A DNA stretch of 64,000 bases from Escherichia coli (GTDB taxonomy: Bacteria > Pseudomonadota > Gammaproteobacteria > Enterobacterales > Enterobacteriaceae). Below the pieces are notes generated by a model that saw nothing but the letters and a program-made list of their open reading frames with translations, had not been told where the DNA came from and made no database searches. The number at the start of each line of letters is the position of its first letter. Within the stretch, counting starts at the first letter, position 1. Position numbers and translations under genes: made by a program. Shown here one piece after another: positions 11,689 through 47,182 of the stretch. The stretch is taken from the NCBI RefSeq assembly GCF_041248615.1, contig NZ_CP158426.1, one strand, 5' to 3'.

Positions 11689-12019
11689 ATCAGCAGCAGA
11701 GCGCAAAGCCGCTCAGAGAGCCAGACAAGCTGCATCTGGTGTGCGTAAGCTGGAGATTGTGCTTGATGCTCAGGAAATTGAAATGCTGGAGCGTAACTGC
11801 GCCGCCCGGCGCCCTGGTCGAGATCCCTATGAAATGGCCGAGTACATCGCGCTGCTGATCCGCCAGGATGATGCCCGGGTGCGCGGGCGTATAAAATCGA
11901 TCAGCAGAAAACGTTGCGGTAAGTGCGGCGAGAGAGTTCCAGTTAATTCATGCCCGTGCAATGGTGACTCGCAATGCTGGGTGACTAAAGGCTGGCATGA
12001 AACGAAATTAATAGTGTGA
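11681..12019 (+). CDS. Hypothetical protein with C-terminal Cys cluster (possible late regulator)
   Basis: CGKCGERVPVNSCPCNGDSQC. It is the last gene before the terminase operon. The regulatory role is only inferred. Confidence 0.5.
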   Translation: MAKSAAERKAAQRARQAASGVRKLEIVLDAQEIEMLERNCAARRPGRDPYEMAEYIALLIRQDDARVRGRIKSISRKRCGKCGERVPVNSCPCNGDSQCWVTKGWHETKLIV

Positions 12020-12027
12020 CATGTCAC
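12016..12027. repeat. Perfect palindrome GTGACATGTCAC (copy 1 of 3)
   Basis: Exact 12-mer, also present at 14281 and 31824. Confidence 0.9.
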
Positions 12028-12068
12028 GAGTAGATTATGCATGATGAATTTGATGTGTTTTGAATACT

Positions 12069-12094
12069 GCCGCCAACTATGGCGGCTTTATTTT
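12069..12094 (+). terminator. Rho-independent terminator ending the early-right region
   Basis: GCCGCC-AACTAT-GGCGGC followed by TTTATTTT. Confidence 0.75.
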
Positions 12095-12104
12095 GCATGG
12101 TACT

Positions 12105-12139
12105 ATTACCACAACGGTAACTATTACCACGGTGGTTAT
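12105..12139. promoter_or_regulatory. Two operator-type sites upstream of terS
   Basis: ATTACCACAACGGTAAC (12105) and ATTACCACGGTGGTTAT (12123). They lie within the direct repeat ACTATTACCAC x2. Confidence 0.5.
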
Positions 12140-12734
12140 GATGCCTGCTGAACCTAAAACCTATAAACGCAAATCAACGCAATTTAAGCCACTAACAGCA
12201 ATGCAGGAGGCTTATTGCCAGTCATACATCAAAACGCCTGAAAACCAGACTCAGGCAGCGATTAACGCAGGATTCTCCCCAAATACAGCGGCAGTTAAAG
12301 CCAGTGTCATGATGCGCGATGAACGCATTCAAAAACGGATTGCCGAGTTGATGGAGGAGCGCAACAAACGAATGCGCGTCAGTGCTGATTACGTTCTCAT
12401 GCGCCTGGTGGAGATCGACCAGATGGACGTGATCGATATCCTCAACGACGATGGGAGCCTTAAACCAATCCGTGAGTGGCCGAAAATCTGGCGCACTACG
12501 CTTAGTGGCTTTGATCTGTCATCGACCATCATGAACATGAACGAGGATTCGATAGAGACAATCCTCAAAAAAATTAAATGGCCTGACAAGGTGAAGAACC
12601 TCGAACTGATTGGTAAGCACGTCGACGTCAACGCATTCAAAGAACGCCTGGATGTTAATGTGAATGTGACAATTGCTGATCGCATAGCGGCAGCCAGGAA
12701 GAGACTGAAAGAACGTCAGGATGGCAATCAGTGA
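12138..12734 (+). CDS. Terminase small subunit
   Basis: Terminase_2-like N-terminus (QEAYCQSYIKTPENQTQAAINAGFSPNTAAVKASVMM). It lies directly upstream of terL with a GTGA overlap. Confidence 0.8.
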   Translation: MMPAEPKTYKRKSTQFKPLTAMQEAYCQSYIKTPENQTQAAINAGFSPNTAAVKASVMMRDERIQKRIAELMEERNKRMRVSADYVLMRLVEIDQMDVIDILNDDGSLKPIREWPKIWRTTLSGFDLSSTIMNMNEDSIETILKKIKWPDKVKNLELIGKHVDVNAFKERLDVNVNVTIADRIAAARKRLKERQDGNQ

Positions 12735-14206
12735 CAGATACAGCGTTATCTCCTGAAGAGCAGTTAATCGAGGATATTGCAGGGTTCACTCACGATCCGC
12801 TTGGCTATGCCCTCTATGCGTTCCCGTGGGGGGAAGAGGGTACTGAACTGGCACATGCCACCGGTCCACGTCAGTGGCAGGCCGATGCGTTCCGAGAGAT
12901 ACGTGATCACCTGCAGAATCCAGAGACGCGATATCAGCCGCTTATGCTGGCACGTGCTTCTGGTCACGGTATTGGTAAATCCGCATTCATCTCAATGCTG
13001 ATCAACTGGGGCATGTCCACTTGCGAGGATTGTAAGGTCGTGGTGACCGCCAACACCGACAACCAGCTACGAACGAAGACCTGGCCGGAAATTATCAAGT
13101 GGTCGAACCTTGCTATCACGAAAGACTGGTTTACCTGTACCGCTACCGCGATGTACAGCAATGACCCTGGGCACGACAAGCGGTGGCGAGCTGACGCAAT
13201 CCCCTGGTCTGAGCACAACACTGAGGCATTCGCCGGACTACACAACGAGCGCAAACGCATCATCGTGGTATTCGACGAAGCATCCAACATTGCCGATCTG
13301 GTGTGGGAGGTAGCAGAGGGTGCGCTGACGGACGAAGACACTGAGATTATCTGGGTGGCATTCGGAAACCCTACACGTAACACCGGGCGTTTCCGCGAAT
13401 GTTTCCGCAAATATAAACACCGCTGGAAAACTGCGCAGATTGACAGCCGGACGGTGGAAGGCACTAACAAACAGCAGTTGCAGAAATGGGTTGATGACTA
13501 CGGGGAAGACAGCGACTTCGTTAAAATCCGTGTGCGCGGCATATTCCCGGATGCATCTGAATTGCAGTTTATCCCTACCGGCCTTACTGACGAGGCAATG
13601 AAACGGGTGGTAACCGCTGCGCAGGTTGCACATGCTCCGGTGATAATCGGCGTTGACCCGGCATACTCCGGCGTTGATGACGCTGTGATATACCTGCGGC
13701 AGGGGCTGCACAGTAAGGTGCTATGGACTGGTAACAAGACCACCGACGATCTGATTATGGCGAAGCGTATCGCTGACTTTGAAGACCAGTACCAGGCTGA
13801 CGCAGTGTTCATCGACTTCGGTTACGGAACTGGTCTGAAGTCAATCGGTGATGGCTGGGGACGTACATGGCAACTTGTTCCGTTCAGCGGTGCGTCCACT
13901 GACCCGCAGATGCTTAACAAGCGTGGGGAGATGTTCAACTCATGCAAGACATGGCTGAGGCTGGGCGGCATGCTGGATGACCAGGAAACAGCAGACGACC
14001 TGTCGGCGGCAGAGTACAAAGTTCGAGTGGACGGTAAAATCGTTATCGAACCGAAGGAAGATATCAAGGAGCGGCTTGGGCGTTCTCCTGGTAAAGGCGA
14101 TGCGCTACTGCTGACGTTTGCGTTCCCTGTGTCGAAGCGTCTGCGAATTCCCGGGCAGCAGAACCAGCAAGGCAAGGCCATCACAGATTACGATCCATAT
14201 GCTTAA
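12731..14206 (+). CDS. Terminase large subunit
   Basis: Walker A-like RASGHGIGKS, a Walker B/DE-like motif (IIVVFDEAS) and a C-terminal nuclease region; 491 aa. Confidence 0.9.
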   Translation: MTDTALSPEEQLIEDIAGFTHDPLGYALYAFPWGEEGTELAHATGPRQWQADAFREIRDHLQNPETRYQPLMLARASGHGIGKSAFISMLINWGMSTCEDCKVVVTANTDNQLRTKTWPEIIKWSNLAITKDWFTCTATAMYSNDPGHDKRWRADAIPWSEHNTEAFAGLHNERKRIIVVFDEASNIADLVWEVAEGALTDEDTEIIWVAFGNPTRNTGRFRECFRKYKHRWKTAQIDSRTVEGTNKQQLQKWVDDYGEDSDFVKIRVRGIFPDASELQFIPTGLTDEAMKRVVTAAQVAHAPVIIGVDPAYSGVDDAVIYLRQGLHSKVLWTGNKTTDDLIMAKRIADFEDQYQADAVFIDFGYGTGLKSIGDGWGRTWQLVPFSGASTDPQMLNKRGEMFNSCKTWLRLGGMLDDQETADDLSAAEYKVRVDGKIVIEPKEDIKERLGRSPGKGDALLLTFAFPVSKRLRIPGQQNQQGKAITDYDPYA

Positions 14207-14256
14207 TCCGCTGGTGGGGATAATACTGCTGATATCCTCTGGTGAGGATAAAACAA

Positions 14257-14280
14257 AGCCAGCTCATCGGCTGGCTGTTT
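14257..14280. terminator. Bidirectional terminator between terL and the gp49-like gene
   Basis: AGCCAGC-TCATCG-GCTGGCT flanked by AAAACAA on one side and GTTT on the other. Confidence 0.7.
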
Positions 14281-14292
14281 GTGACATGTCAC
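14281..14292. repeat. Perfect palindrome GTGACATGTCAC (copy 2 of 3)
   Basis: Exact 12-mer abutting the terminator. Confidence 0.9.
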
Positions 14293-14296
14293 GGTG

Positions 14297-14653
14297 TTAT
14301 TGCTCGCTTAACTTCTGCTTCAGCAAGTAACCTTCGAGCATCCAGATTTTGTTTACAGCATTCTGCCGGGCAATCTTCCGACCAATTTCTGCATCAAAAT
14401 TTTCCGGACTTGCACAGGCACTCTCTCCGGTGACGGTGAAGCCATTCTTCAGTACCAATACGCAGAAAGTCAGGAGGTCTGTAGATTTATGCGCTGTCCA
14501 TGAATCGCCAACACCCATATTGGCAGCACGAATGCCGTCATAAGCAGTAAAGAAATGCTCTTCAAGAATGATGCTTTCGATATATTGAGGCGTAACGCGC
14601 GGTGCCGTTTTGCCTTTCTCAACGATTTCTTTTTCGATTTGCTGGTCGTTCAT
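14297..14653 (-). CDS. N4 gp49 / Sf6 gp66-family protein
   Basis: LTFCVLVLKNGFTVTGESACASPENFDAEIGRKIARQNA is the hallmark of this family. Function is unknown. Confidence 0.8.
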   Translation of the reverse strand: MNDQQIEKEIVEKGKTAPRVTPQYIESIILEEHFFTAYDGIRAANMGVGDSWTAHKSTDLLTFCVLVLKNGFTVTGESACASPENFDAEIGRKIARQNAVNKIWMLEGYLLKQKLSEQ

Positions 14654-14766
14654 AATCTCACCTTAAAAAAATGCCCGGCGAACCTGGCGAACTGGAAGCA
14701 ATGAGTTATGCCTTCCGTGGCTGTACGGGTTTACAGCATGAAGTCATCGCAATGGCGTCCTGCTGT

Positions 14767-14809
14767 AAAAAAGGGCGGTGATAGTCCTTCAAGGGAAACT
14801 ATCACCGCC
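14767..14809 (-). terminator. Strong Rho-independent terminator downstream of the tRNA
   Basis: 12-bp stem GGCGGTGATAGT / ACTATCACCGCC, then CTTTTTT on the minus strand. Confidence 0.85.
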
Positions 14810-14852
14810 AAGCCCCTGGAACTTCTGGCATCACGGTCCTTAGGCGTGATTC

Positions 14853-14929
14853 TGGCGTGGCATGCAGGATTCGAACCTGCGACCAACCGCTTAGAAGGCG
14901 GTTGCTCTGTCCGACTGAGCTAATGCCAC
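14853..14929 (-). tRNA. tRNA-Arg (anticodon UCU) with encoded CCA
   Basis: Full cloverleaf folded by hand: acceptor GTGGCAT/ATGCCAC, D arm GCTC/GAGC, anticodon arm ACCGC-CTTCTAA-GCGGT, T arm GCAGG-TTCGAAT-CCTGC, discriminator G, CCA. Confidence 0.93.
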
Positions 14930-15245
14930 AACGCTGAGAGCACTTAGCCTGTTAAGGCGCCACACTTTGTCGCGGCTCCATAAATGCTCTCATCGTTGTA
15001 CCCTCGTCTCTTCCGAGGCGTCACACCGAATCGCCGGGATGGTGAATCCCCGTGCGCGGAATAAAACCGCTCGACTTGCACATTCCGGCTACCTGGTTCG
15101 TTTGCCCGAGCAAGGGAGGGTGCCCCTTAAACGTATCCAGACCGCTATCGGCGCATGTGCCATACACCGTACTGCTCAAAATAAAATCTCACTCCACCTG
15201 TTCAATTTAACGACAGGCCAGTCAGGTTAGTAACCGGAATGAACT
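14930..15245 (-). ncRNA. Candidate structured 5' leader / non-coding RNA upstream of tRNA-Arg
   Basis: About 320 nt with no credible ORF. It lies between the divergent promoter region and the tRNA and contains several stems, including a long-range stem 14936-14942/14985-14991 next to the tRNA 5' end. The class is unknown. Confidence 0.35.
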
Positions 15246-15250
15246 CTTTG

Positions 15251-15329
15251 GTTACCTGAAAGGTAATAATTTGTGCGTTAAATGTCAACTGTCTACGATA
15301 AATAAATCATATGTGGTTAAATTGGTAAT
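15251..15329. promoter_or_regulatory. Divergent control region upstream of the portal operon
   Basis: Operator GTTACCTGAAAGGTAAT (15251-15267) and variant GTGGTTAAATTGGTAAT (15313-15329) have centres 62 bp apart. CATATGTGGTT motif at 15308-15318. Confidence 0.5.
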
Positions 15330-15356
15330 AATTTAATTGCGTACGGAGTCATTGAT

Positions 15357-15563
15357 ATGTGCATGGGTAGCTCACCATCAGTGCCTGCAACACCAGAAGT
15401 TCAGGCAGCACCACAGGAGCAGGATGCCGCCGTTGTTGATGCCCGCGACGAAGAAACTCGTCGCCGTCGCGCTGCTGCTGGTCGTAGTTCTACGCTGCTT
15501 ACCGGTTCTCAGGGCGACACATCAACCGCTAATACCAGCGGTAAAACGCTGCTTGGTCAGTAA
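15357..15563 (+). CDS. Small hypothetical virion-module protein (68 aa)
   Basis: GGAG RBS 8 nt upstream. Low-complexity Ala/Arg-rich protein. Preferred over the overlapping 15337 frame. Confidence 0.6.
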   Translation: MCMGSSPSVPATPEVQAAPQEQDAAVVDARDEETRRRRAAAGRSSTLLTGSQGDTSTANTSGKTLLGQ

Positions 15564-15577
15564 CCGGAGTCATTGAA

Positions 15578-17257
15578 ATGGCGGAAACAACTAAAGAGCG
15601 ATTGAACAAACAGTTCGCACAACTTGAAAGCGAGCGTCAGTCGTTCGAGCCGCACTGGCGCGAGTTGAGTGATTACATCAACCCACGTGGTTCCCGCTTT
15701 CTGACTTCTGAGGTCAACCGTAACGATCGACGCAATACACGCATTATTGATTCGACCGGGACTATGGCGGCGCGCACTCTCGCCAGCGGCATGATGTCAG
15801 GCATCACAAGCCCCGCGCGTCCGTGGTTTCGCCTGGCTACGCCAGATCCTGAAATGATGGATTATGGCCCTGTTAAGTTGTGGCTTGAGGCAGTTCAGAA
15901 CCGCATGAACGATATGTTCAATAAGTCGAATCTCTACCAGTCTCTTCCGCAGTTATACGGAAGCCTCGGCACATACAGCACTGGTGCAATGGCAGTGCTG
16001 GAGGATGACGAGGACATCATTCGCACAATGCCATTCCCGATAGGCAGTTACTACCTGGCTAACTCACCTCGTGGCAGTGTTGACACCTGTTTTCGCAAGT
16101 TCTCTATGACTGTTCGTCAGCTTGTTCAGGAGTTCGGGCTAAATAACGTCAGCGAATCCGTAAAAAGCATGTGGGAAAGCGGCACCTACGAGAAGTGGAT
16201 CGAAGTGATGCATTCGGTTTACCCGAACATTGACCGCGATACATCGAAGCTGGATAGCAAGAACAAGCCATTCAAATCGGTTTATTACGAGGTTGGTGGA
16301 GATAACGACAAGTTGTTGCGTGAGTCCGGATTCGATGAGTTTCCAATTATGGCTCCGCGCTGGGAAGTTAACGGCGAAGATGTTTATGGATCATCATGCC
16401 CGGGTATGCTGGCGCTTGGACCTGTTAAGGCATTGCAGCTTCTCCAGAAGCGCAAGTCGCAGTTGATTGATAAAGCCACCAATCCGCCGATGGTTGCTCC
16501 GACTTCCCTCAAGAATCAGCGCGCCTCCCTTCTTCCTGGCGACATCACGTATATCGATCAGATTACTGGTCAGGATGGCTTCAGGCCTGCTTATCTGGTT
16601 AACCCCAGTACAGCAGATTTGGTGGCAGACATTCAGGACACTCGTCAAATCATTAACAGCGCCTACTTTGTCGATCTGTTCATGATGTTGCAGAACATCA
16701 ATACCCGCTCGATGCCTGTTGAAGCGGTGATCGAAATGAAAGAAGAAAAACTTCTGATGTTGGGGCCGGTTCTGGAGCGTCTGAACGACGAATGTCTTAA
16801 TCCTCTCATTGACCGCGCTTTCTCGATGATGGTGCGCAAAAACATGCTGCCGCCACCGCCTGACGCGATGGAAGGCATGCCCCTGAAGGTCGAATACATT
16901 TCCGTCATGGCTCAGGCGCAGAAGTCTATCGGCCTGTCCAGTCTGGCGTCCACGGTTAACTTCATTGGTCAACTTGCGCAAGCGAAACCAGAAGCTCTCG
17001 ACAAACTCAACGTTGATCAGGCGATCGATGCATTCGCTGATATGTCCGGAGTGTCTCCAACCGTCATTGTTCCGCAGGAACAGGTTGAGCAGGCTCGCCA
17101 GCAACGGGCACAGCAACAACAGCAGCAACAAATGATGGCGATGGGGATGGCGGCGGCACAGGGGGCCAAGACGCTAAGCGAAGCTAAAACTTCGGATCCG
17201 AGTGTGTTGTCAGCTATGGCGAATGCAGTTAGTGGTCAGGGTGGGCAATCACAATGA
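15578..17257 (+). CDS. Portal (head-to-tail connector), podovirus/T7 type
   Basis: 559 aa. The N-terminal LESERQSFEPHWRELSDYINPR is typical of T7-like connector proteins. It has a Gln-rich C-terminus. Confidence 0.85.
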   Translation: MAETTKERLNKQFAQLESERQSFEPHWRELSDYINPRGSRFLTSEVNRNDRRNTRIIDSTGTMAARTLASGMMSGITSPARPWFRLATPDPEMMDYGPVKLWLEAVQNRMNDMFNKSNLYQSLPQLYGSLGTYSTGAMAVLEDDEDIIRTMPFPIGSYYLANSPRGSVDTCFRKFSMTVRQLVQEFGLNNVSESVKSMWESGTYEKWIEVMHSVYPNIDRDTSKLDSKNKPFKSVYYEVGGDNDKLLRESGFDEFPIMAPRWEVNGEDVYGSSCPGMLALGPVKALQLLQKRKSQLIDKATNPPMVAPTSLKNQRASLLPGDITYIDQITGQDGFRPAYLVNPSTADLVADIQDTRQIINSAYFVDLFMMLQNINTRSMPVEAVIEMKEEKLLMLGPVLERLNDECLNPLIDRAFSMMVRKNMLPPPPDAMEGMPLKVEYISVMAQAQKSIGLSSLASTVNFIGQLAQAKPEALDKLNVDQAIDAFADMSGVSPTVIVPQEQVEQARQQRAQQQQQQQMMAMGMAAAQGAKTLSEAKTSDPSVLSAMANAVSGQGGQSQ

Positions 17258-17550
17258 CAGATTACGAAGACGATCAACTGAAAGAAGAAAACGCCCGTAA
17301 GCAACGTGACATGGCGCAGCGTGAAATTGATGACATTCGCTTTGTCATGAGCAGTGAACAGGGGCGTCGCGTTGTCTGGTCGGTGCTGGAGAAAGGCCGT
17401 GTGTTTTCCGCTATCTCACCGATGGACGCTATGGCAATGGCATTTAATGAGGGGCAACGCAATCTGGCGCTGGAACTGTTTCAGCGCGTTATGGCGCATT
17501 GCCCTGAACAGTATTTGAAGATGGCCAAAGAGGCCAGTGAACAGGAGTGA
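17254..17550 (+). CDS. Hypothetical head-module protein (98 aa)
   Basis: ORF whose start overlaps the portal stop by 4 nt, located between portal and scaffold. Confidence 0.6.
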   Translation: MTDYEDDQLKEENARKQRDMAQREIDDIRFVMSSEQGRRVVWSVLEKGRVFSAISPMDAMAMAFNEGQRNLALELFQRVMAHCPEQYLKMAKEASEQE

Positions 17551-17552
17551 TC

Positions 17553-18248
17553 ATGAATTTATTTGAGCGTTTGCTGTATCGCCGTCTTTGCAATGAGCAA
17601 CCAGTCGATGGTGGAGCAGCTCCGGCTGCGTCAGAACCGTCAGCGCCTGCAGGTGATAACCATGCTCCAGTTGGTGATCCATCACAACCGGAAGGTGATA
17701 AGTCACAACCTGTTGCTGATGGCGATAAACCTGCTGATGACAAAAATCCTGAAAACGATAAGCAGGATGAAAAAAAGGACGGCGATAAACCAGAGGGTGC
17801 GCCTGAGAAGTACGAGTTTCAGGCTGCCGAAGGCGTAGAGCTGGATACAGAAGCGTTGAAGGAATTCGAGCCGGTGGCGCGAGAACTAAACCTGACCAAC
17901 GAGCAAGCGCAAAAGCTGGTTGATGCTTATCCGAAGATTCTGGCAGGTGTTCAGCAGCGCCAGGTAGAAGCCTGGCAGAAAACAACCGAGCAGTGGGCTG
18001 CGGATGTAAAAGCTGACAAAGAAATCGGTGGCGACAAGTTGATTTCTAACCTTAGCGCCGCACAGCGTGCGCTTGACCAGTTCGGGACACCTGAACTCAA
18101 AGAATATCTGAACACCACCGGGCTGGGTAATCACCCTGATCTGGTCAAAACGTTCGTGAAAATCGGAAAGGCGATGTCTGAAGATGGCATGGTCACCGGT
18201 GGTAATGAAGGCCAGCGTAGTGCGGCCGAAGTGCTCTATGGCAAATAA
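17553..18248 (+). CDS. Scaffolding protein (putative)
   Basis: Acidic, Pro/Asp-rich N-terminus then helical. It sits immediately before the capsid gene. ATG at 17553 after an AGGAG RBS. Confidence 0.65.
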   Translation: MNLFERLLYRRLCNEQPVDGGAAPAASEPSAPAGDNHAPVGDPSQPEGDKSQPVADGDKPADDKNPENDKQDEKKDGDKPEGAPEKYEFQAAEGVELDTEALKEFEPVARELNLTNEQAQKLVDAYPKILAGVQQRQVEAWQKTTEQWAADVKADKEIGGDKLISNLSAAQRALDQFGTPELKEYLNTTGLGNHPDLVKTFVKIGKAMSEDGMVTGGNEGQRSAAEVLYGK

Positions 18249-18256
18249 GAGAGGAA

Positions 18257-19249: not shown

Positions 19250-19300
19250 CGCCTGTTATTAACCTGTGGGTCGTAACAGACCCACTAATGGAGAAAGAAG

Positions 19301-19738: not shown

Positions 19739-19748
19739 GGTGATATCG

Positions 19749-20084: not shown

Positions 20085-20100
20085 GCCTCGCGAATCAGAC

Positions 20101-20122
20101 AAGGGGCTTCGGCCCCTTTATT
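20101..20122 (+). terminator. Rho-independent terminator/attenuator inside the late operon
   Basis: AAGGGGC-TTCG-GCCCCTT followed by TATT. Confidence 0.65.
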
Positions 20123-23998: not shown

Positions 23999-24543
23999 TG
24001 TGCGATCCGGTTATTGCTGGTGGCGCAATGCTCGCCATGAGTGGCATTCAGGCATACACCCAGTACCAACAGGGAAAGTATGCCTCGAAGGTTGCAGAAG
24101 CGAACGCAGATATAGCCACAGCTCAGGCAAATGATGCAATAAACAGAGGTAACGCTGAAGCTGAGCAACGGCGCAGAGAGACCCGGCAGCGGCTTGGTAC
24201 TCAAGCGGCGACAATGGGGGCGACCGGCGCCGATTTATCTACCGGTAACGCGCTGGATATATTTGGCGACACTGCCCAGTTTGGCGCTCTTGATTCGCTG
24301 ACGACGGTGAATAACGCGCAACGCGAGGCTTACGGTTATCAGGTTCAGGCTGCCAACTATAAAGCAGAAGCCAGTTCAGCCCGTAAACAGGGGAATGTGG
24401 GAGCAGCAACAACATTGCTCACTGCGCCTCTGAAGGCATACGGTGCGTACCAGATGTTTGGTGGGACGTGGAGTCCGTTTACTCAAAGCACTCCTGCGCC
24501 AATCGGGGCAGCAGCAGGAACCAGATTACCCGGAGGATTATAA
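23998..24543 (+). CDS. Internal virion (ejection) protein, small
   Basis: 181 aa, Ala/Gln-rich. It is the first of a run of ejection-type proteins. Confidence 0.5.
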   Translation: MCDPVIAGGAMLAMSGIQAYTQYQQGKYASKVAEANADIATAQANDAINRGNAEAEQRRRETRQRLGTQAATMGATGADLSTGNALDIFGDTAQFGALDSLTTVNNAQREAYGYQVQAANYKAEASSARKQGNVGAATTLLTAPLKAYGAYQMFGGTWSPFTQSTPAPIGAAAGTRLPGGL

Positions 24544-27056
24544 TGCCAGTCGTACCAACAGTATCCGGACGTCAGGTTGAGAGCCGTGGAGTTCAGTCAG
24601 CAGGCTTGCAGACGTTTTCTCAGCCAGGTATTGGTGATGCTTTTGTTCGGGCAGGGGCAGAGGCTATTGATGTTTTTGGTCAGGCAAAACAGCGTGCCAA
24701 TATCGCTCTGGCTCAGGAGGCATCTCTTAACCTCAGTCAGATAAGCAGCGATCTGCTGAATAACCCTGAAACAGGTTTGCTTAACCTGAAAGGGAAAAAT
24801 GCTATTGGAAAAGGTCAGGAGTATACGCAGCAGTTTGATGCTCGGGCCGAACAACTGGCTATGTCGCTGCCGGATGAACAGGCTCGTAATGCTTTCATGC
24901 AGCAGGCGCAGCAGCAGCGCATTCAGTTCACTACGCAGGCAGGGCGGCACGAGATAGGGCAAATAAATGCCTACGAAGAAGGCCAGTTTCAGGCTACGCT
25001 GCTGAACAATGGTAAAAATGCCGCAGCATTGTATGGCGACAACGCCGCATACGTATTGGCTAATAAGCAAACTTTCCAGCAAATTGAGGATTACGGCATT
25101 GCACATGGCTGGAGTGACGAGCAAATCCAGGCCAAGAAAATCGAGTTTAAAGAGAAGGTTGCTGATGCCGCATTGTCCCAGTGGTCGGCAAACAATGCGA
25201 CCGCATTCATCCAAAGTAATGGCGAGTTAAGTGATACTGCTGCTGGAGCTCGCCGTGCTGTAGCAGATAGTGACTCTTCCGAGCGTGCCCGTGGCATACG
25301 CAACAATAACCCAGGAAATCTCGAATACAGCAAAACTAATCCGTGGGTAGGCCAGACCGGTGATGATGGTCGATTTGCTAAATTCGAAACACCTGAACAC
25401 GGGATTCGTGCATTAGGGCGGAACCTGATGTCGTATCAGAGGCAGGGTATTGATACCGTCAGCGAGATAATTAATCGCTGGGCACCGCCTACTGATAAAA
25501 ATGACACTATGTCGTATATCAAAGCAGTGTGCGAACAACTTGGCGTTTCTGCTGATGAGCCTCTCGATGCATCTAATCCTGATACCCTGAAGGCGCTTTG
25601 TGCAGCCATTATCCATCATGAGAACGGTAGCCAGCCATACAGTGATCAGCAGTTAACTGCTGGTGTCAGTGCAGCACTTGGTTTATCAACAATTCCAACC
25701 AACACCAAACGCTATACCGGTAATGCAGCATTCGATGCGGCATCTCCTGAGGCGCAGGCAAGTTTTATGCGACAGGCGGATCAACTGCGTCGGCAGCAGC
25801 AGGCTGAATATAAAACGATGATTGACAGCCAGGTTCGCGATGCGACAGCTGCGTATATGCGTGGCGTTGAATTTCCTAACCCACCTGGTGAGGCTGATTT
25901 TATTGCAGCTTATGGAGTAAGAGAAGGAAACCTGCGATATACCGAGTTCAGAAATACGCAAATCGCCGGACAGTATATAGGCTCTTTCCGCAACATGCCG
26001 ACAAGCAGCATTACAGCATATGTTGAGCAATTACGCCCGGATACTGGTGAGACAGGGGAGGGTTATGCGGCACGAGCCGCTCTTTATGACAACGTTGTGT
26101 CGGCTGCAAGTCAGGTGATAAAGCAGCGACAGGCTGATCCTGTACAGTTCTCTCTTGCCGCCGGACAGGCAAAGCCTATCGACATGAGCAATAAGGATAA
26201 CTTTGGACAGAGCGTTGCCTTGCGTGCTGCTCAGGTCAGTGACCTTGCTAAGTCATATGGCACTCCACTGACGTTCTTTTCCAAAGACGAGGCCAATCAG
26301 ATCGGTGTTTTCTTTCGTGATGCGCCCGTTTCCCAACAGGCAGCATATCTCGATACCATCAGGCAGAGCACTGGTGGTGGGCAGGTGTATATGTCAGCAC
26401 TACAGCAGATCAGTGCCAACGCTCCATCTGCTGCCGTTGCCGGGATACTGATGGATAAGCCAGGTGGTATTTTGGCAGAAAAAAACTGGTTTAATCCGGA
26501 TGTTTCCGTGTCTCCTGAAACCGCTGCGCAGACAATTCTTGCTGGCGCGGCGGCTCGTAAAGGTACTGATGATGCGAAAGGTATTCCGATGCCTAAAGAT
26601 GCTGATCTTCGCCTTGAGTTTTCTGACATGGTGAAGGATGCATTTGCTGGTGACGCTCAGGGGGCATCAATGGCATACGAGATCGCAAAGGATTATTACG
26701 CTGGTGTGATGGCGAAAAAAGGCGTGGTATCAGGCGAAATTGACAATGATGTCTGGAAACAGGCTGTTAACGTAGCTACAGGTGGCGTGCATGACTATAA
26801 CGGAATGGGGAATGTCCTTTTGCCGTGGGGAATGTCTGCAGAGCAATTCGATAAGCAGGTTAATCAGGTTTGGAATGAACAAGTTGTCGGCTCCGGGATA
26901 AAAACACCGCCTGGTCAGTATGGTTTGCAAAGTTACGGCGATAGTCAGTATCTGGTGAAACTTGGTACTGGTTATCTGCTGAAAGATGATGGTTCTCCCG
27001 TTGTTCTTAATCTGACACAGAAGCGTCAGAGATTCTCCGGAGATATTCCGCAATGA
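24543..27056 (+). CDS. Internal virion protein with a peptidoglycan-hydrolase-like domain
   Basis: ATG at 24543 (TAATG overlap, GGAGG RBS). GIRNNNPGNLEYSKTNPWVGQ...FETPEHGIRALGRNL resembles virion-associated muralytic domains. Confidence 0.65.
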   Translation: MPVVPTVSGRQVESRGVQSAGLQTFSQPGIGDAFVRAGAEAIDVFGQAKQRANIALAQEASLNLSQISSDLLNNPETGLLNLKGKNAIGKGQEYTQQFDARAEQLAMSLPDEQARNAFMQQAQQQRIQFTTQAGRHEIGQINAYEEGQFQATLLNNGKNAAALYGDNAAYVLANKQTFQQIEDYGIAHGWSDEQIQAKKIEFKEKVADAALSQWSANNATAFIQSNGELSDTAAGARRAVADSDSSERARGIRNNNPGNLEYSKTNPWVGQTGDDGRFAKFETPEHGIRALGRNLMSYQRQGIDTVSEIINRWAPPTDKNDTMSYIKAVCEQLGVSADEPLDASNPDTLKALCAAIIHHENGSQPYSDQQLTAGVSAALGLSTIPTNTKRYTGNAAFDAASPEAQASFMRQADQLRRQQQAEYKTMIDSQVRDATAAYMRGVEFPNPPGEADFIAAYGVREGNLRYTEFRNTQIAGQYIGSFRNMPTSSITAYVEQLRPDTGETGEGYAARAALYDNVVSAASQVIKQRQADPVQFSLAAGQAKPIDMSNKDNFGQSVALRAAQVSDLAKSYGTPLTFFSKDEANQIGVFFRDAPVSQQAAYLDTIRQSTGGGQVYMSALQQISANAPSAAVAGILMDKPGGILAEKNWFNPDVSVSPETAAQTILAGAAARKGTDDAKGIPMPKDADLRLEFSDMVKDAFAGDAQGASMAYEIAKDYYAGVMAKKGVVSGEIDNDVWKQAVNVATGGVHDYNGMGNVLLPWGMSAEQFDKQVNQVWNEQVVGSGIKTPPGQYGLQSYGDSQYLVKLGTGYLLKDDGSPVVLNLTQKRQRFSGDIPQ

Positions 27057-28855
27057 GTTACTTTGGCCTTAATCCAGTAAACCAGAATCAGCAGCTTGAC
27101 GAAGCAGCATCAAATCCAGCTGGCTTTAACAGCGATGTTGGTTTTTTCGACAATGCTGTAGGAGCGGCATTGTCTGGTTTGTACTCCGGGCTGGTGGCAA
27201 AGCCAGATCAGTTGCTATGGGCAGGGATGGATAAAATCGTATCCCCGATTGCTCAGTTTGTTAACGAAAACACCTCGCTCAATGACACTTCAGTTTCATA
27301 CATTGCTGAGCAGAGAAAACTAGCAGAGCAGCAGGTTAAGCGGCTGACGCCTGATGCCGCGACAACCGGAACCGCCGGGCAGGTTCTTTATGGGTTGTTC
27401 GATATGGGCGGGCAGGCTGTTGTCGGTACAACGCTCGGTGGTCCTGTCGGAGGTGCAGCGGCGGTAACTTCGCTACAGGGTTTTTCTGAGTTTGAACGGC
27501 TGACAGCACAGGGTGTTGATTTCAGGACGGCGAAGGAAGCGGGATTAGTGCAGGGCATTACTGCTGGTGCCGGAACACTGATCCCTATGAGCCTCGGGTT
27601 ACGTGCTGGTGGTGCGCTGGCGGAAGGTGTGGCGGCTCAGCTTGCGCGGACGGGTGAAAGTTCAGTGCGACGCGCCGCAGCAACAGCAGTACGTGCAACG
27701 CCAGATATTGCCTATGCCGCAGGTACAAATATTGCGTTCGGTATGGCACAGCGTGGGCTTACTGCAAAAACGCTTCGTGATGGTGGCTATAGCGAAATGG
27801 CTAACCAGTATGATGTGTTGGATCGACAGGCAATTGCTATTGATGCTGTTCTTGGGGTGGCGTTTGGTGGTGTCGGCAGATTTATTAACTCTCGCGGCGA
27901 GTCTACAAGCGCACCAAATTTTTCACCAGTTGATATTGATGCTGCACTGGCGGCGAATGCCGCTCATCATGCTGAAATTGATATTGCTCCCGGCGTTCCG
28001 ATCAACGTGCTTTCGCGTAATTCGCACATTCAGGCTCTGCGAAAAGCCATGTCTGATGTTAGCCAGGGGAGACCTGTAGACGTTGCCAGCATTGTTGAGT
28101 CTGCATCTTTCAGTGAAATTCCTGGGCCCAAGAGTCTGCTGTCTCAGGCAGTTAATGAGGCTCTGTCATCTGTAGATGATGGAGTAACGGCGCGCGCTAT
28201 AGAAAATCGGTTGCTTGAAGAACAGGCCGCGCAGCTTTTGTCGCGTGGCGATAGACAGGTTTACCAGTCTGAAATCGCTAATAGCCAACGAATTATTGAA
28301 AATCTCACTGAACAGCGCGCACAAATTCTTGCAGAAGAGCCAACCGGGAGCGGTAAGGCTTTATCTCGTGCTCGATCAGATAAACAGGCCAGACTTCGCG
28401 ATATTGATCAACGAATCCGGCAGGCACAAGAACGCCTGGAATTTTCCCGTAACGCGTTGGCACCGCACGAGCCTGGCGGTCAGTTTTTTGAAGCTCGAGC
28501 AGAACTGGCACGACGACAGCAGGCAGAAAGTGAACTTAATGCTCAGGCTGTTTCATTCTATAAAACAGCAGAGGTCAGGACGCCAGACGAAGTAGCTCCT
28601 TTTGAGCCCGGTAAGATATTGCAACAGACAGAACAAAAAATGATGGCAGATCCGGCAGGAGATATTGATCTGCGTATAGCTGAAGACTCGCTGCTTGAAT
28701 CTCCGGACATGATAATCACCGTGCTGGATGATGATGGTAATCCACAATCGCGCAGTGCGCGTGAAGTACTGGATGAAGCGAACAGGGAAAGTGAGCAGGC
28801 AATACAGGATTCCAGCCTGTTTGATGTCGCTGTGGCGTGTTTCTTGAGAGGTTAA
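27053..28855 (+). CDS. Internal virion (ejection) protein
   Basis: 600 aa with Gly/Ala-rich hydrophobic segments and a coiled coil. Its start overlaps the preceding stop by 4 nt. Confidence 0.55.
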   Translation: MSYFGLNPVNQNQQLDEAASNPAGFNSDVGFFDNAVGAALSGLYSGLVAKPDQLLWAGMDKIVSPIAQFVNENTSLNDTSVSYIAEQRKLAEQQVKRLTPDAATTGTAGQVLYGLFDMGGQAVVGTTLGGPVGGAAAVTSLQGFSEFERLTAQGVDFRTAKEAGLVQGITAGAGTLIPMSLGLRAGGALAEGVAAQLARTGESSVRRAAATAVRATPDIAYAAGTNIAFGMAQRGLTAKTLRDGGYSEMANQYDVLDRQAIAIDAVLGVAFGGVGRFINSRGESTSAPNFSPVDIDAALAANAAHHAEIDIAPGVPINVLSRNSHIQALRKAMSDVSQGRPVDVASIVESASFSEIPGPKSLLSQAVNEALSSVDDGVTARAIENRLLEEQAAQLLSRGDRQVYQSEIANSQRIIENLTEQRAQILAEEPTGSGKALSRARSDKQARLRDIDQRIRQAQERLEFSRNALAPHEPGGQFFEARAELARRQQAESELNAQAVSFYKTAEVRTPDEVAPFEPGKILQQTEQKMMADPAGDIDLRIAEDSLLESPDMIITVLDDDGNPQSRSAREVLDEANRESEQAIQDSSLFDVAVACFLRG

Positions 28856-28860
28856 ATTAA

Positions 28861-31335
28861 ATGAGACAGGAATGTATACAAGCGGTCCAGCAGGCGGCGC
28901 AGCGCACGTTAACGGCGCGAGAAATACAGAACATTGAAGACCGCATTTATCGAAATATGCGCTCCATTGCTCGTGATGACCCGATGTCGTGGAGACAACT
29001 TTCCGAATCAGAGCGGCTATATCGTGCAGCACAATTGGCATCTGAGGAATTACAGCGAGAAGCGGCATTAAAGAAACGTCGTGTGGCCCTCACTATAGCC
29101 GCACGTCAGAGATTGGATAAATTTATCAATAGCTATCAAGGGGCTGATGGGAAACTTGGCGCTCTTAACCGTACTATTGCTTTTAATGCAGACGGTAAAT
29201 CGAATTTCCTCTCTGTTGAGTCCAGAACAAAAGCCACTCGTGATTATGCATTGAGTCAATTGCAGGAGGCATTCGAAGCAGTTGATCCTCGCTTTTTTGG
29301 TCTGTTTGAAGATGAAGCGGGCGTACGTGACCTGGTATATGAAATGCGAGGGCAAAATACTGGCAATTCTAAAGCAAGAAAAGGTGCTAAGGCGTGGAGA
29401 GAAGTGACAGATCTACTGCGCCGCCGGTTTAATGATGCTGGTGGGGACATTGGCTATCTCGAAAACTGGGGGATCCCTCAGCATCATTCTATGGAAAAGG
29501 TTGGGGCGGTATCAAAGGATAAGTGGGTTAGCGATGTTATAGGTAAGCTGGATCGCAAATATTATATCCGAGCCGATGGACAACTGATGAACGATGCCGA
29601 GTTGTCTGCATTTCTTGGAGAGGCTTATAACACGATCGCTACTGGTGGGCTGAATAAGCTTACTGATACCGGAATGCGAATTTCCGGCGCACGTGCTAAC
29701 CGTGGTAATGCATCACGACAGATACATTTCAAAGATGCAGATTCCTATCTGCAATATCAGCAACTTTATGGCGATCGCTCTCTATGGGAAATCATGGTCG
29801 GTCACCTGGAAGGTATCAGTAAAGATATTGCACTGGTGGAAACATATGGCCCAAACCCCGATCATGTTTTCCGCTCTCTTCTTGATCAGGTGAAGGCAGA
29901 AACGGCAACAGCTAACCCGAGTAAAACCGGTAAAGTCGAGCGGCTGGCGAACAACACAGAGAATCTGTACAACTTTATTTCCGGAAAGACACAGCCTGTA
30001 GCGAATCCGCACATCGCGCGATGGTCTGACAATATCCGCAACTGGCTGGTTGCCAGCAGACTCGGATCTGCGTTGCTATCATCGTTCTCTGATCTTGGAA
30101 CCATGTATCTGTCTGCGAAGGTGACCAACCTTCCAATGAACCAGTTATTCCGCAACCAGCTTGAAGCTATGGACCCAACGAACCGTACAGAACTTGCGCG
30201 GGCGCGCCGCGCTGGTCTGGCGATGGAATCTCTACTTGGCAGCGTTAACCGCTGGGCGATGGATAATATGGGGCCGTCAGTGTCTCGTTGGGCGGCAACG
30301 GCGGTAATGCGTGCCAGTGGGCTTACAGCATGGTCAGATGCGCACAAGCGCGCCTATGGCGTAACCATGATGGGAAGCCTGGGAGAAGTAGTGTCACGGA
30401 CACCAGACCTTCGTAGCCTCGATGATTCTGATTTTCGTATCCTGAAAAGCAAAGGGATTACTGACACAGACTGGAGCGTATGGAAGCTGGCGCAACAGGA
30501 GGACTGGGGGAACGGTAATAATACGATGCTGACACCGGAAAGCATTATGCGTATCCCTGATTCAGCAGTTAAACATCTTGGTGAGCCTGAGCGCGTGAAA
30601 TTTGAGGCAATGCGTAAATTGCTAGGTGCCGTAACTGAAGAAGTTGATATGGCTGTTATTACACCGGGAGCTCGTGAGCAACTGATAACCGGTTCTGGTA
30701 TTCAGCGTGGAACATGGAAAGGTGAATTAACGAGAAGTGTTTTCCTGTTTAAATCTTTCCCTATCTCGGTTGTTATGCGTCACTGGTCACGCGCTATGGG
30801 TATGCCGTCTGCTGGTGGGCGTGCGGCATATATTGCGACGTTTATTGCCAGTACGACCATTCTTGGCGCTTTGTCGCAGCAACTTAACGACCTTGCGTCT
30901 GGTCGTAATCCTCGAGAGATGACAGGAGAAGATGCCGCAAAATTCTGGCTTGGTGCTCTACTGAAAGGTGGTGGTCTTGGCCTTTACGGTGACTTTTTAT
31001 TGTCAGATCACACCAGGTACGGAAGCGGCGCGCTGGCGTCGATGCTTGGCCCGGTAGCTGGTCTGGTTGATGACGTGGTGAAGATTGCTCAGGGCATACC
31101 GTTAAATGCTGTGGAAGGGAAGAGTGAGCAGACTGGTGGTGATCTGGTGAAGCTGGGGAAAGGTTTGATGCCTGGTGCGAATCTCTGGTATTTGAAGGCG
31201 GCTCTCGATCACATGATCTTTAACCAGATGCAGGAGTATTTTTCACCAGGCTATTTGCGTAAAATGGAGCAACGTTCGAAGAAAGAGTTTAACCAGACAT
31301 ACTGGTGGCGACCTCAGGATGTCACTCCGCAATAA
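28861..31335 (+). CDS. Large internal virion (ejection) protein
   Basis: 824 aa with C-terminal hydrophobic segments. It is the last large gene of the injection module. Confidence 0.55.
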   Translation: MRQECIQAVQQAAQRTLTAREIQNIEDRIYRNMRSIARDDPMSWRQLSESERLYRAAQLASEELQREAALKKRRVALTIAARQRLDKFINSYQGADGKLGALNRTIAFNADGKSNFLSVESRTKATRDYALSQLQEAFEAVDPRFFGLFEDEAGVRDLVYEMRGQNTGNSKARKGAKAWREVTDLLRRRFNDAGGDIGYLENWGIPQHHSMEKVGAVSKDKWVSDVIGKLDRKYYIRADGQLMNDAELSAFLGEAYNTIATGGLNKLTDTGMRISGARANRGNASRQIHFKDADSYLQYQQLYGDRSLWEIMVGHLEGISKDIALVETYGPNPDHVFRSLLDQVKAETATANPSKTGKVERLANNTENLYNFISGKTQPVANPHIARWSDNIRNWLVASRLGSALLSSFSDLGTMYLSAKVTNLPMNQLFRNQLEAMDPTNRTELARARRAGLAMESLLGSVNRWAMDNMGPSVSRWAATAVMRASGLTAWSDAHKRAYGVTMMGSLGEVVSRTPDLRSLDDSDFRILKSKGITDTDWSVWKLAQQEDWGNGNNTMLTPESIMRIPDSAVKHLGEPERVKFEAMRKLLGAVTEEVDMAVITPGAREQLITGSGIQRGTWKGELTRSVFLFKSFPISVVMRHWSRAMGMPSAGGRAAYIATFIASTTILGALSQQLNDLASGRNPREMTGEDAAKFWLGALLKGGGLGLYGDFLLSDHTRYGSGALASMLGPVAGLVDDVVKIAQGIPLNAVEGKSEQTGGDLVKLGKGLMPGANLWYLKAALDHMIFNQMQEYFSPGYLRKMEQRSKKEFNQTYWWRPQDVTPQ

Positions 31336-31344
31336 GGAAGTGTT

Positions 31345-31518
31345 GTGTTTTTAATTATTTTGAGTGTAATAATTTCTGGTGGATTGTTATTTATTGACCA
31401 CTACAAATATTTTCTTAACCCTCAGACTCAAGCTATTTGCTGGTTCATCTTTGTTGTGCAGGGAGTAGTTCTTGTTGCAAGCCTTATTGAGGGGAGGCCT
31501 CTTATTTTTACTGGGTAA
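31345..31518 (+). CDS. Possible 57-aa two-pass membrane protein (not in the ORF track)
   Basis: GTG at 31345 after an AAGGAAG RBS. Sequence FLIILSVIISGGLLFIDHYKYFLNPQTQAICWFIFVVQGVVLVASLIEGRPLIFTG. AT-rich. Confidence 0.45.
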   Translation: MFLIILSVIISGGLLFIDHYKYFLNPQTQAICWFIFVVQGVVLVASLIEGRPLIFTG

Positions 31519-31530
31519 ATAGGTGACTAC

Positions 31531-31827
31531 ATGCAAGCTATAGGATTCATTGTTTATATCGTCGTTGGTCTTTTTCAGTTGGCAGCAATTATGGCTGGGC
31601 TTGAATCATGGTGGGGATTGCACTGGATAATTGCAGCCCCCATCGCTTTCATCGTGAGCTATATTCCATTTGTTGGAGCGATTGTTGGTATGGTTGGCGC
31701 TGTGGATGTATGGCGGTGGGAGTGGTGGCAGGCTGGCCTTCTATTCTTTGGTGGGATAATCTTTGCTATTGTCTGCGGTGGAATGTCATCATTTTTCGAA
31801 TGGCTATCATTCAGAAAAGAGACGTGA
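31531..31827 (+). CDS. Small integral membrane protein (98 aa, about 3 transmembrane helices (TM))
   Basis: Very hydrophobic and Trp-rich. It is the last plus-strand gene before the accessory island. Confidence 0.6.
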   Translation: MQAIGFIVYIVVGLFQLAAIMAGLESWWGLHWIIAAPIAFIVSYIPFVGAIVGMVGAVDVWRWEWWQAGLLFFGGIIFAIVCGGMSSFFEWLSFRKET

Positions 31828-31835
31828 CATGTCAC
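31824..31835. repeat. Perfect palindrome GTGACATGTCAC (copy 3 of 3)
   Basis: Exact 12-mer overlapping the stop codon and abutting the terminator. Confidence 0.9.

Positions 31836-43569: not shown

Positions 43570-47182
<3,613 letters not shown>

Follow-up and report, generated by a model that had tools for sequence, protein, structure and literature searches.

The palindrome GTGACATGTCAC, present three times in the window (the whole 64-kb stretch of Escherichia coli DNA analysed here, which carries a phiV10/epsilon15-like prophage), is one form of an inverted repeat, GTGAC-N2-GTCAC, which is conserved in many temperate phages and is called the box in the following. The box is very probably a site for a sequence-specific protein, and the gene at 11681-12019 encodes, judging from sequence and structural modelling, its probable binder. 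Chances seem evenly balanced for the joint reading, according to which the box is the target of this protein and marks the ends of transcription units, probably by way of the elongating RNA polymerase; that it works there as a roadblock or boundary is a tentative and, in our own estimate, doubtful part of the proposal. No literature on the box was found.

The box and its conservation

The first-pass annotation had claimed that the three copies are not due to chance and that they lie at module junctions, and both statements hold. Shuffled sequence gave an expectation of 0.01 copies, with three copies reached in none of 100 shuffles; the 64 kb contain no further exact copy, allowing up to two mismatches adds just two sites (chance level), and no box occurs in the window's chromosomal part (23 kb). 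The placement of the copies (Table 1) is non-random. Copy 1 overlaps the TGA stop (12017-12019) of the last early gene, and the distance to the terminator preceding terS, given before as about 40 nt, is 41 nt when measured to the T1 hairpin downstream (12069-12086, plus strand). Between copy 2 and the hairpin (14257-14276) downstream of terL (12731-14206) there are 4 nt, and on its other side the minus-strand cargo gene has its stop 4 nt away; beyond that gene a tRNA-Arg is located (14853-14929). While the adjacency to the post-terL terminator was described correctly, its bidirectional nature was not borne out: it is called on the minus strand only, the scan gave no plus-strand call at this site, and the plus-strand tail GTTTGTGA is T-poor. 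Seen on the plus strand, copy 2 falls after the hairpin. Copy 3, directly before T3 just as annotated, takes in the TGA stop (31825-31827) with which the last late plus-strand gene ends. Copies 2 and 3 are each flanked by convergent genes, and the spacing between box and terminator is uneven, with 0-4 nt in these two as against the 41 nt of copy 1.

Table 1 Features around the three box copies in the window
Feature	Position	Strand	Basis and context
Box copy 1, GTGACATGTCAC	12016..12027		exact-match scan; covers TGA stop of the regulator gene
Box copy 2	14281..14292		between stop of minus-strand cargo gene and minus-strand terminator after terL
Box copy 3	31824..31835		covers TGA stop of last late plus-strand gene; 0 nt gap to T3
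Candidate box-binding protein, 112 aa	11681..12019	+	epsilon15 gp49 / N15 gp46 family, PHROG 536; last gene of early rightward operon
Intrinsic terminator T1, GCCGCCaactatGGCGGC + T-run	12069..12094	+	terminator scan; separates early operon from terS
Repressor-type operator (prophage repressor), ATTACCacaacGGTAAC	12105..12121		just upstream of terS; match to epsilon15 repressor sites
Intrinsic terminator T2, AGCCAGCcgatgaGCTGGCT + TTGTTTT	14249..14276	-	terminator scan; box 2 is 4 nt upstream on minus strand
Variable cargo gene, Phage_gp49_66 family	14297..14653	-	Pfam E 1.7e-34; 3' end adjoins box 2
Repressor-type operator, GTTACCtgaaaGGTAAT	15251..15267		upstream of portal/structural unit; syntenic epsilon15 site annotated 2931-2947
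Variable last late gene, PHROG 3075 (function unknown)	31531..31827	+	stop inside box 3
Intrinsic terminator T3, AGGCCGCtttcGCGGCCT + TGTTTTT	31836..31861 (hairpin to 31853)	+	closes late structural unit

Epsilon15 (about 77% nucleotide identity) and Tyrion contain the identical 12-mer at all three syntenic positions, phiV10 has exact copies 2 and 3 and a one-base variant of copy 1, and TL-2011b keeps the 12-mer at two of the three positions; the sequence flanking the boxes has diverged in all of them. The arrangement of copy 1 at the stop of the regulator gene is shared by epsilon15, Tyrion and TL-2011b, the post-terL box is kept in epsilon15-like prophages from several genera, and copy 3 is retained in all four named phages although the preceding gene varies. 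The search of related prophages that the first-pass annotation had proposed found the 12-mer together with variable adjoining cargo: among 80 E. coli relatives (1.39 Mb), whose loci cover just two of the syntenic positions, 127 of 128 copies lie either just past the regulator gene or about 2.2-2.5 kb downstream, after terL. The sole exception is found 4.4 kb downstream (L180), and the 10 kb upstream of the regulator gene contain no copy. Single-base mutant boxes occur in roughly 10-15% of close relatives.

Across lineages the half-sites GTGAC and GTCAC are invariant and the central dinucleotide is free, being AT, TG (N15 and phiKO2), GC (a Yersinia P2-like phage), AC, CT or GT. A spacing of 2 was seen in 35 copies among 27 species-diverse loci (0.48 expected) and in 23 copies among 10 phage genomes (0.39 expected), with spacings of 0, 1 and 3-8 as well as the everted arrangement at background level in both sets. 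Invariant half-sites around a free centre are the signature of a dimeric binding site rather than of a homology patch. The same variation bears on the suggestion that a methyltransferase or restriction system of the phage recognises the box (core ACATGT), or that the box serves the terminase as a pac site, which is barely credible: methyltransferases are encoded by the phage and copies 1 and 2 bracket terS-terL, but the core reads ACTGGT in N15 and ACGCGT in the Yersinia phage, so that the methylase idea of the first-pass annotation is disfavoured, and boxes are present in N15, a cos phage, and stand far from the terminase genes in ZF40. A terminase or partition site is unsupported, given the distribution of boxes across phages: cos phages (N15) and phages that integrate have them too, some fall within the coding sequences of repA and cII, and others are remote from the terminase genes; of the binding partners named earlier (regulator, terminase or partition factor), a regulator is best supported by the comparative data.

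Linkage to a candidate regulator gene and its protein

In 22 of the 27 species-diverse loci (protein identity 50-82%) the distance between a box and the regulator gene's stop codon is 0-14 nt, and the same adjacency is found in ZF40, Chlobot, N15, phiKO2 and the Yersinia P2-like phage, so that the linkage spans podoviruses as well as N15-like, P2-like, lambda-like and ZF40-like phages. N15 and phiKO2 have three boxes in common at three syntenic sites, and a Vibrio phage with a 32%-identical homologue also has three. No box was found in phages without the gene (PY54 right arm, lambda, 186, P22); RepA of N15 and phiKO2 encodes a box, which RepA of PY54 lacks at the same position. The tie between copy 1 and the gene whose stop it overlaps had not been remarked upon in the first-pass annotation. 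At 24 of 72 box-bearing cII-type prophage loci no homologue lies within 10 kb downstream; either the gene is farther off, or the box persists alone, or another factor binds.

Such another factor might be a host protein, for example one resembling MatP, a possibility we rate as very slight. MatP contains an RHH and its 13-bp site matS, GTGACRNYGTCAC, which organises the chromosomal Ter region, has the same inverted GTGAC half-sites as the box; all hosts of box-bearing phages are Enterobacterales or Vibrio, and the third of cII-type loci without a nearby phage candidate would fit as well. However, matS has a 3-bp spacer, whereas that of the box is strictly 2 and never 3, and the box goes with a phage gene, is missing from related phages that share these hosts and does not occur in the chromosomal part of the window.

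The linkage bears likewise on recombination, in which identical boxes of 12-14 bp would be mainly short homologies for swaps of cargo and modules by RecE/RecT, with no binder involved. Breaks in homology between related prophages do fall only a few bases away from each box, at least seven different minus-strand cargo genes adjoin copy 2 and at least eight different last-late-gene ends adjoin copy 3 in relatives, a 70-aa ORF or an SOS-promoter cassette follows directly after copy 1 in some of them, and RecE/RecT-like functions are encoded by the phage. We nevertheless regard this reading as improbable: a single gene family accompanies the box across unrelated types of phage, relatives without that gene lack the box, the box is conserved and codon-constrained in coding sequences where no exchange is seen, it combines fixed half-sites with a free centre, and boxes are missing from the other variable regions of these phages. 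The recombination hotspot suggested earlier has support as far as breakpoints and cargo exchange at the boxes are concerned, and is unlikely as a primary role because the same box is embedded in conserved genes of other phages; module exchange as a consequence of the box is partly supported.

The linkage to the gene, together with the modelled fold of its product, leads us to read the box as the probable operator of this regulator. The AF2 model (pLDDT 91.5) comprises an N-terminal basic helix and a ribbon-helix-helix (RHH), followed by a C-terminal Cys-rich zinc ribbon; a Pfam search gave no match. The conserved basic helix has two invariant residues, R8 and R13, and the RHH ribbon residues differ between lineages whose half-sites are identical, so that base reading would have to fall to the N-terminal helix, which is non-canonical for RHH proteins and counts against the proposed pairing. 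A dimer would read the two half-sites and leave the two central bases unread. In its C-terminal half (helix, CxxCG..[IV]P zinc knuckle, helix) the protein weakly resembles TraR and YbiI in profile comparisons (E 0.04-0.06). The gene and the box at or just past its stop codon would move together as a module, and extra boxes elsewhere in the genome would form a small regulon.

Position of the boxes in transcription units

The boxes are situated in transcribed DNA, some at the ends of operons, some 1-5 nt ahead of a terminator and some within coding sequences (cII-type, 'DIPF'-ending and repA); in some phages they precede a start codon by 9-19 nt, in ZF40-like and lambdoid prophages each of the two early arms has them at a distance of a few kb, and none was seen in divergent promoter regions. 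Of 53 non-redundant contexts, 15 have a terminator that begins no more than 15 nt past the box, compared with 18 of 795 random positions; boxes outside the epsilon15-like phages mostly have no terminator nearby. Because boxes are in transcribed DNA and not in promoters, an action on the elongating RNA polymerase appears most likely. In the window, the terS-terL unit starts at the operator at 12105, matching the repressor sites annotated in epsilon15 (ATTACC-N5-GGTAAT), and carries box 2 at its end, and the portal/structural unit begins at the operator at 15251 and ends with box 3. Late units would start at repressor operators and boxes would mark unit ends, one of them behind the last early gene, one separating the cargo gene from its terminator, and one right before the terminator of the structural unit. 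The bound protein may then act as a site-specific roadblock or boundary for the elongating polymerase, reinforcing these junctions after expression of the early operon. A point against this reading are the strong intrinsic terminators, which have no obvious need of a helper.

Two other modes of transcriptional control seem improbable to us. In the first, the protein would be a conventional repressor or activator of promoters overlapping or adjoining the boxes, such as the SOS-controlled antirepressor promoter that some relatives have directly behind copy 1, or a weak promoter with GTGACA as -35. GTGACA matches the -35 consensus in 5 of 6 positions, and a scan gives GTGACA-18-CATGAT at copy 1 and GTGACA-18-AATGAT at copy 3 (minus strand); the -35 of a LexA-box promoter begins 6-7 nt past the box end in several relatives, one box of N15 and phiKO2 falls within the antirepressor operon's leader/promoter region, and RHH proteins usually are repressors. 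Yet promoter-like matches are not commoner than in shuffled sequence, the putative -10 elements are not kept where flanks vary, no promoter is needed between the convergent genes at copies 2 and 3, and many boxes lie in coding sequences or shortly ahead of a start codon.

In the second, a processive antiterminator (Q-, N- or RfaH-like) would load at the box and let the polymerase read through the downstream terminator, extending early transcription into terS-terL at copy 1 and late transcription towards the tail-fibre gene at copy 3. The order of regulator gene at the early operon end, site, short spacer, terminator and terS resembles lambda Q/qut/tR', the boxes on both early arms of ZF40-like and lambdoid prophages recall nutL and nutR, and the C-terminal half of the protein weakly matches TraR, a binder of the RNA polymerase secondary channel (E 0.04; hhalign probability 69%). 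Structure searches did not recover TraR, however; N15, phiKO2, Chlobot and L029-type prophages also have a Q gene of their own, read-through of minus-strand cargo transcription at copy 2 would run antisense into terL, the regulator of ZF40-type phages lies downstream of the boxes it would need, and the late units already have repressor-controlled starts.

Less likely still is a role of the box as RNA, in which termination, processing or translation would be influenced by a small hairpin (GUGA-CNNG-UCAC) in the 3' UTR by the terminator or before ribosome-binding sites. At copies 2 and 3 the box does stack straight onto the terminator hairpin on the transcribed strand, and the frequent placement before start codons in other phages would suit such an element, but the box hairpin is marginal (-1.2 kcal/mol, not better than shuffles), its arms never covary, variants being one-sided with no compensatory changes, and the adjacent protein has a modelled dsDNA-binding fold.

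Comparison with known systems

Lambda Q/qut/tR' has the same order, with the regulator last in the early rightward operon, then the site, the terminator and the packaging genes; in contrast, the protein family here is unrelated, the box has no accompanying conserved promoter, more boxes occur at unit ends and in coding sequences, and several box phages own a bona fide Q. DksA/TraR zinc-finger proteins share the weak profile likeness of the C-terminal half, but the candidate lacks a second CxxC as well as any Pfam or structural match, and its would-be polymerase-channel helix is also RHH helix 2. The lambdoid 'boundary sequences' and T4-type promoter-stem-loop cassettes, module-junction linkers of mosaic phages, are also short and conserved and flank variable cargo with homology breaking at their edges, whereas the box goes with a single regulator gene, is built like a dimer site and occurs also inside conserved coding sequences. 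RHH repressor/operator pairs (Arc, Mnt, CopG, AmrZ, TacA antitoxins) likewise combine a short, dimer-suited inverted repeat with a linked gene; here the boxes lie at the 3' end of the regulator operon, by terminators and in other genes instead of at the protein's own promoter, the candidate adds the conserved basic helix and the zinc ribbon, and its ribbon residues vary while the half-sites are constant. We know of no dedicated boundary factor paired with intrinsic terminators in these phages. The mode proposed here for the box protein would be that of protein roadblocks such as LacI at O2 or CodY and CcpA in Bacillus, bound to transcribed DNA and acting independently of orientation, with Tus-Ter and mTERF/Reb1 as more distant analogies to such a putative action.

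Copies of the box in the window and in close relatives

The 64-kb window holds exactly three copies of the 12-bp palindrome GTGACATGTCAC (hereafter the box; table below), where 0.01 copies are expected, and none of 100 dinucleotide-preserving shuffles reached three, which bears out the view of the first-pass annotation that this number is beyond chance. Allowing up to two mismatches adds only two window sites, both at chance level. The same annotation had placed copies 1 and 3 over stop codons ahead of terminators, as we also find, and copy 2 beside a bidirectional terminator after terL; the position of copy 2 is correct, the bidirectionality is not established, because only on the minus strand is a terminator called. 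A tRNA-Arg gene comes after the minus-strand Phage_gp49_66 gene at copy 2.

Positions of the boxes and of associated features in the window
Feature	Position	Strand	Setting
Box copy 1	12016 (start)		Early operon; overlapping TGA stop of the regulator gene; terminator 41 nt on
Box copy 2	14281 (start)		Minus-strand cargo unit; 4 nt from hairpin and 4 nt from stop of Phage_gp49_66 gene
Box copy 3	31824 (start)		Structural unit; overlapping TGA stop of last late ORF; abutting terminator
Regulator gene	11681-12019	+	112-aa product
Last late ORF	31531-31827	+	
Terminator at copy 1	12069-12086	+	Ahead of terS
Terminator hairpin at copy 2	14257-14276	-	3' of terL
Terminator at copy 3	31836-31853	+	Directly after box
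ATTACC-N5-GGTAAT	4893-4909		
ATTACC-N5-GGTAAT	7936-7952		
ATTACC-N5-GGTAAT	12105-12121		Ahead of terS
ATTACC-N5-GGTAAT	15251-15267		Ahead of portal operon
ATTACC-N5-GGTAAT	34225-34241		Ahead of tail-fibre gene
Near-consensus LexA box (AACTGTATATTTATACAGTA)	34171-34190		Head of minus-strand accessory island ending at copy 3
Second perfect 12-bp palindrome (GATGCGCGCATC)	45743-45754; 52688-52699		Chromosomal part; both apparently in coding-like sequence

The prophage in the window is phiV10/epsilon15-like (Uetakevirus), and related genomes carry the 12-mer in syntenic, non-random placement: it is identical at the three corresponding positions in epsilon15 (Salmonella, ~77% nucleotide identity) and Tyrion (Enterobacter), it is present at the same three positions in phiV10 with one substitution in copy 1, and TL-2011b has kept two of the three copies, while the flanks around the boxes differ in all four phages. 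Among 80 close E. coli relatives (1.39 Mb) we counted 128 copies, 127 of them at the two syntenic positions which those loci cover; the sole exception is a second copy in locus L180, 4.4 kb downstream, and the 10 kb upstream held none. The module around copy 1 is found in ~9% of complete E. coli genomes (501/5426). In the phiV10 RefSeq record (L001) copy 1 spans the ends of the sequence (39101-39104 and 1-8) and reads GTGACATGTTAC, a one-base change shared by two IMG/VR relatives. A cos site or genome end at copy 1 was considered and rejected, as this record starts inside the box merely because it was opened after the stop codon of the last gene.

The general motif and its linkage to a regulator gene

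The box belongs to a more general motif, GTGAC-N2-GTCAC, with 35 occurrences in 27 species-diverse chromosomal loci (0.48 expected) and 23 in 10 phage genomes (0.39 expected); in both sets, half-site spacings of 0, 1 and 3-8 as well as the everted arrangement are at background level. The half-sites are invariant and the central dinucleotide is free across lineages, being AT in most, TG in N15 and phiKO2, GC in a Yersinia P2-like phage, and AC, CT or GT in Pantoea, Enterobacter and Serratia prophages. Judged from the sequences, a variable centre between constant half-sites is characteristic of a DNA site bound by a dimer. A methylase target with the core ACATGT, suggested in the first-pass annotation, is excluded, since no such core is invariant between lineages.

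The regulator gene, with whose stop codon copy 1 overlaps, encodes a member of PHROG 536 ('transcriptional regulator'), a small family (160 clusters at E <= 0.001, with 1.84 billion representatives searched) which includes epsilon15 gp49 and N15 gp46. A search for related loci with a 10-sequence alignment yielded loci of different species (50-82% protein identity), and in 22 of these 27 the distance between box and regulator stop codon is 0-14 nt. The same distance was found in the myovirus ZF40, the lambda-like Chlobot, N15, phiKO2 and the P2-like Yersinia phage, and in three lineages the stop TGA has the identical register within the box. All 10 phage genomes carrying the regulator gene have one to three boxes, and a Vibrio phage with a homologue of only 32% identity has three; in four relatives that lack the gene (the right arm of PY54, lambda, 186 and P22) no box was seen. 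Three syntenic boxes are common to N15 and phiKO2, namely in the antirepressor operon leader, inside repA and at the regulator stop codon; the repA box is read as the codons V-T-S-H, where PY54 RepA has V-S-V-W.

Loci of prophages with a CP76-type cII contain boxes in 72 of 80 cases, often within cII as x-D-M-S-x codons and within a PL-arm gene. The regulator gene lies within 10 kb downstream in 48 of the 72, and no homologue was detected within that distance in the other 24; co-occurrence of gene and box within these loci is weakly positive (41/18/11/10), the loci being limited to 10-kb flanks. In ZF40 (L205, 5125 and 7622), L029, L036, L235 and ~59 IMG/VR loci, the exact 12-mer stands in frame near the 3' end of cII and within the PL-arm gene, whose product ends in DIPF, so that both early arms carry the box, on either side of the immunity region. 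Dense GTGAC/GTCAC half-site arrays surround a full box in the IMG/VR contigs L023, L042, L052, L057, L071 and L109, in the fetched stretches of which no regulator homologue was detected; these arrays may be iterons of an unrelated protein, and those of L023, L042, L052, L071 and L109 were set aside as probably unrelated, given the lack of a regulator homologue in the locus.

The regulator protein

An AlphaFold2 model built from a 56-sequence alignment (pLDDT 91.5) predicts that the regulator is a ribbon-helix-helix (RHH) protein. Conservation is highest in the N-terminal basic helix, where R8 and R13 are invariant, and the ribbon residues are variable. The C-terminal half (residues ~47-107) consists of a helix, a CxxCG..VP knuckle and another helix, and gives a weak profile match to TraR/YbiI (E 0.04-0.06; hhalign 69%). 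TraR binds the secondary channel of RNA polymerase. The E value against TraR itself is 0.04; the second CxxC of the C4 zinc finger of DksA/TraR is absent, and neither a Pfam nor a structural match supports it. A Foldseek comparison of the model with the PDB returned nothing significant. Domain fusions were discarded as a clue to function, since the longer homologues seem to stem from gene calling that fused them to their neighbours (Ead/Ea22, TerL fragments).

Placement of the boxes relative to transcription units

In three units of the prophage, the order on the transcribed strand is stop codon, box, terminator. In 15 of 53 non-redundant contexts a terminator begins no more than 15 nt beyond the box, compared with 18 of 795 random positions; other boxes lie within coding sequences or 9-19 nt ahead of start codons. 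The box is beside the terminator stem and not in it, hence we rejected it as part of an intrinsic terminator, be it the G+C-rich stem or the T-run. As RNA it would form a marginal 4-bp hairpin (-1.2 kcal/mol), whose arms never covary.

One of the two main rival readings is a conventional operator, and the co-occurrence of an inverted-repeat site with the gene is indeed as expected of an RHH regulator and its operator. The boxes, however, lie at 3' ends, between convergent genes or within coding sequences rather than over promoters, and no divergent promoter region was seen to contain one. Matches to promoters with GTGACA as -35 are at chance level compared with shuffled sequence and are not conserved; those at copy 1 are weak (GTGACA-18-CATGAT in the window; GTGACA-17-TAAATT, read by eye, in epsilon15) and are lost in relatives with a 70-aa ORF inserted. 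A site for a late activator upstream of terS was likewise rejected, since the box stands 19 nt before the terS ATG in Vibrio phage K233 and an ORF starts 9 nt after it in type-B relatives, leaving no room for a promoter. Sites of repressor type are found elsewhere: the second palindrome family, ATTACC-N5-GGTAAT, annotated in epsilon15 as repressor sites, has five copies in the window, three of them at the starts of units, while the boxes mark unit ends. As copies precede terS, the portal operon and the tail-fibre gene, the prophage repressor seems, from these sequence matches, to sit directly at the starts of late units.

Because the boxes lie in transcribed DNA, the promoter matches are at chance level and the RNA hairpin is marginal, we favour the reading that a DNA-bound dimer would serve as a roadblock or boundary for polymerase during elongation.

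Cargo junctions

At each box, the homology shared by relatives ends within a few bases. Copy 2 is adjoined by at least seven alternative minus-strand genes and copy 3 by at least eight alternative gene ends; directly after copy 1, relatives have a 70-aa ORF or a LexA-box promoter cassette inserted. This fits the proposal of the first-pass annotation that the box is a hotspot for the exchange of accessory genes. Exchange is unlikely to be its primary function, because the box is also conserved inside genes, and we take the junction pattern to result from selection that keeps the box at permissive unit ends.

The 70-aa ORF (MPKIRYDLEDMRDNSANFPKE...) lies exactly between box 1 and its terminator in ~28 of 80 related loci (L126:10357-10569, for example), starting 9 nt past the box. 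The LexA-box promoter cassette (TTGACT-17-TACTGT) stands 6-7 nt past box 1 in L210, L211, L215, L007, L035 and other epsilon15-like prophages. SOS-controlled genes are also located 3' of the regulator gene in N15 and the Yersinia P2-like phage, and an association with antirepressor genes is recurrent. The accessory island headed by a LexA box in the window probably corresponds to the antirepressor operon under SOS control that SPC32H-type phages are known to carry. LexA itself was dismissed as box binder, as LexA boxes are separate from the box.

Significance and comparison with known systems

Full-text literature searches for the box sequence and its variants returned nothing relevant, and the combination of an RHH/zinc-ribbon regulator with boxes located both inside genes and at the ends of units appears to be undescribed. 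There is a small chance that this combination represents a novel type of site-specific control of termination. Box and partner gene seem to be a hitherto undescribed control module of phages that are widely used as models or in applications (epsilon15, phiV10, N15, phiKO2); phiV10 serves for reporter phages for E. coli O157. Should the protein bind the box and act on elongating polymerase, this would explain how convergent and tandem units of these mosaic genomes stay insulated despite cargo swaps at their junctions, and would give phage engineers a boundary part that is compact and portable. In the prophage group of the window, the box is a simple annotation marker for cargo slots and unit ends.

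Among host sites, matS, the 13-bp site of MatP (GTGAC-N3-GTCAC), has a spacing of 3, whereas boxes have a spacing of 2 in 61 sites and of 3 in none or one. The sites of CRP (6-bp spacer) and FNR do not fit the box, and that of SlmA (GTGAGTACTCAC) differs from it at positions 5-8. The other main rival is an antiterminator-loading site. A lambda-type Q/qut module would have its site in or beside a constitutive late promoter, with a terminator following ahead of the late genes; at copy 1 a terminator lies 41 nt downstream, and the promoter matches there are weak and not conserved. Such a module needs a Q-family protein; the regulator has no Q-family match in Pfam or NCBIfam, and several box-bearing phages encode a separate Q.

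A further reading, which we regard as improbable, is that proteins of the gp49/gp46 family are site-tethered factors acting directly on RNA polymerase, giving programmable points of termination (or antitermination): the RHH part would hold the GTGAC-N2-GTCAC boxes and the TraR/DksA-like zinc-finger half would engage the passing polymerase. To our knowledge, a sequence-specific, protein-dependent transcription boundary system of such a kind would be the first described in bacteria or their phages.
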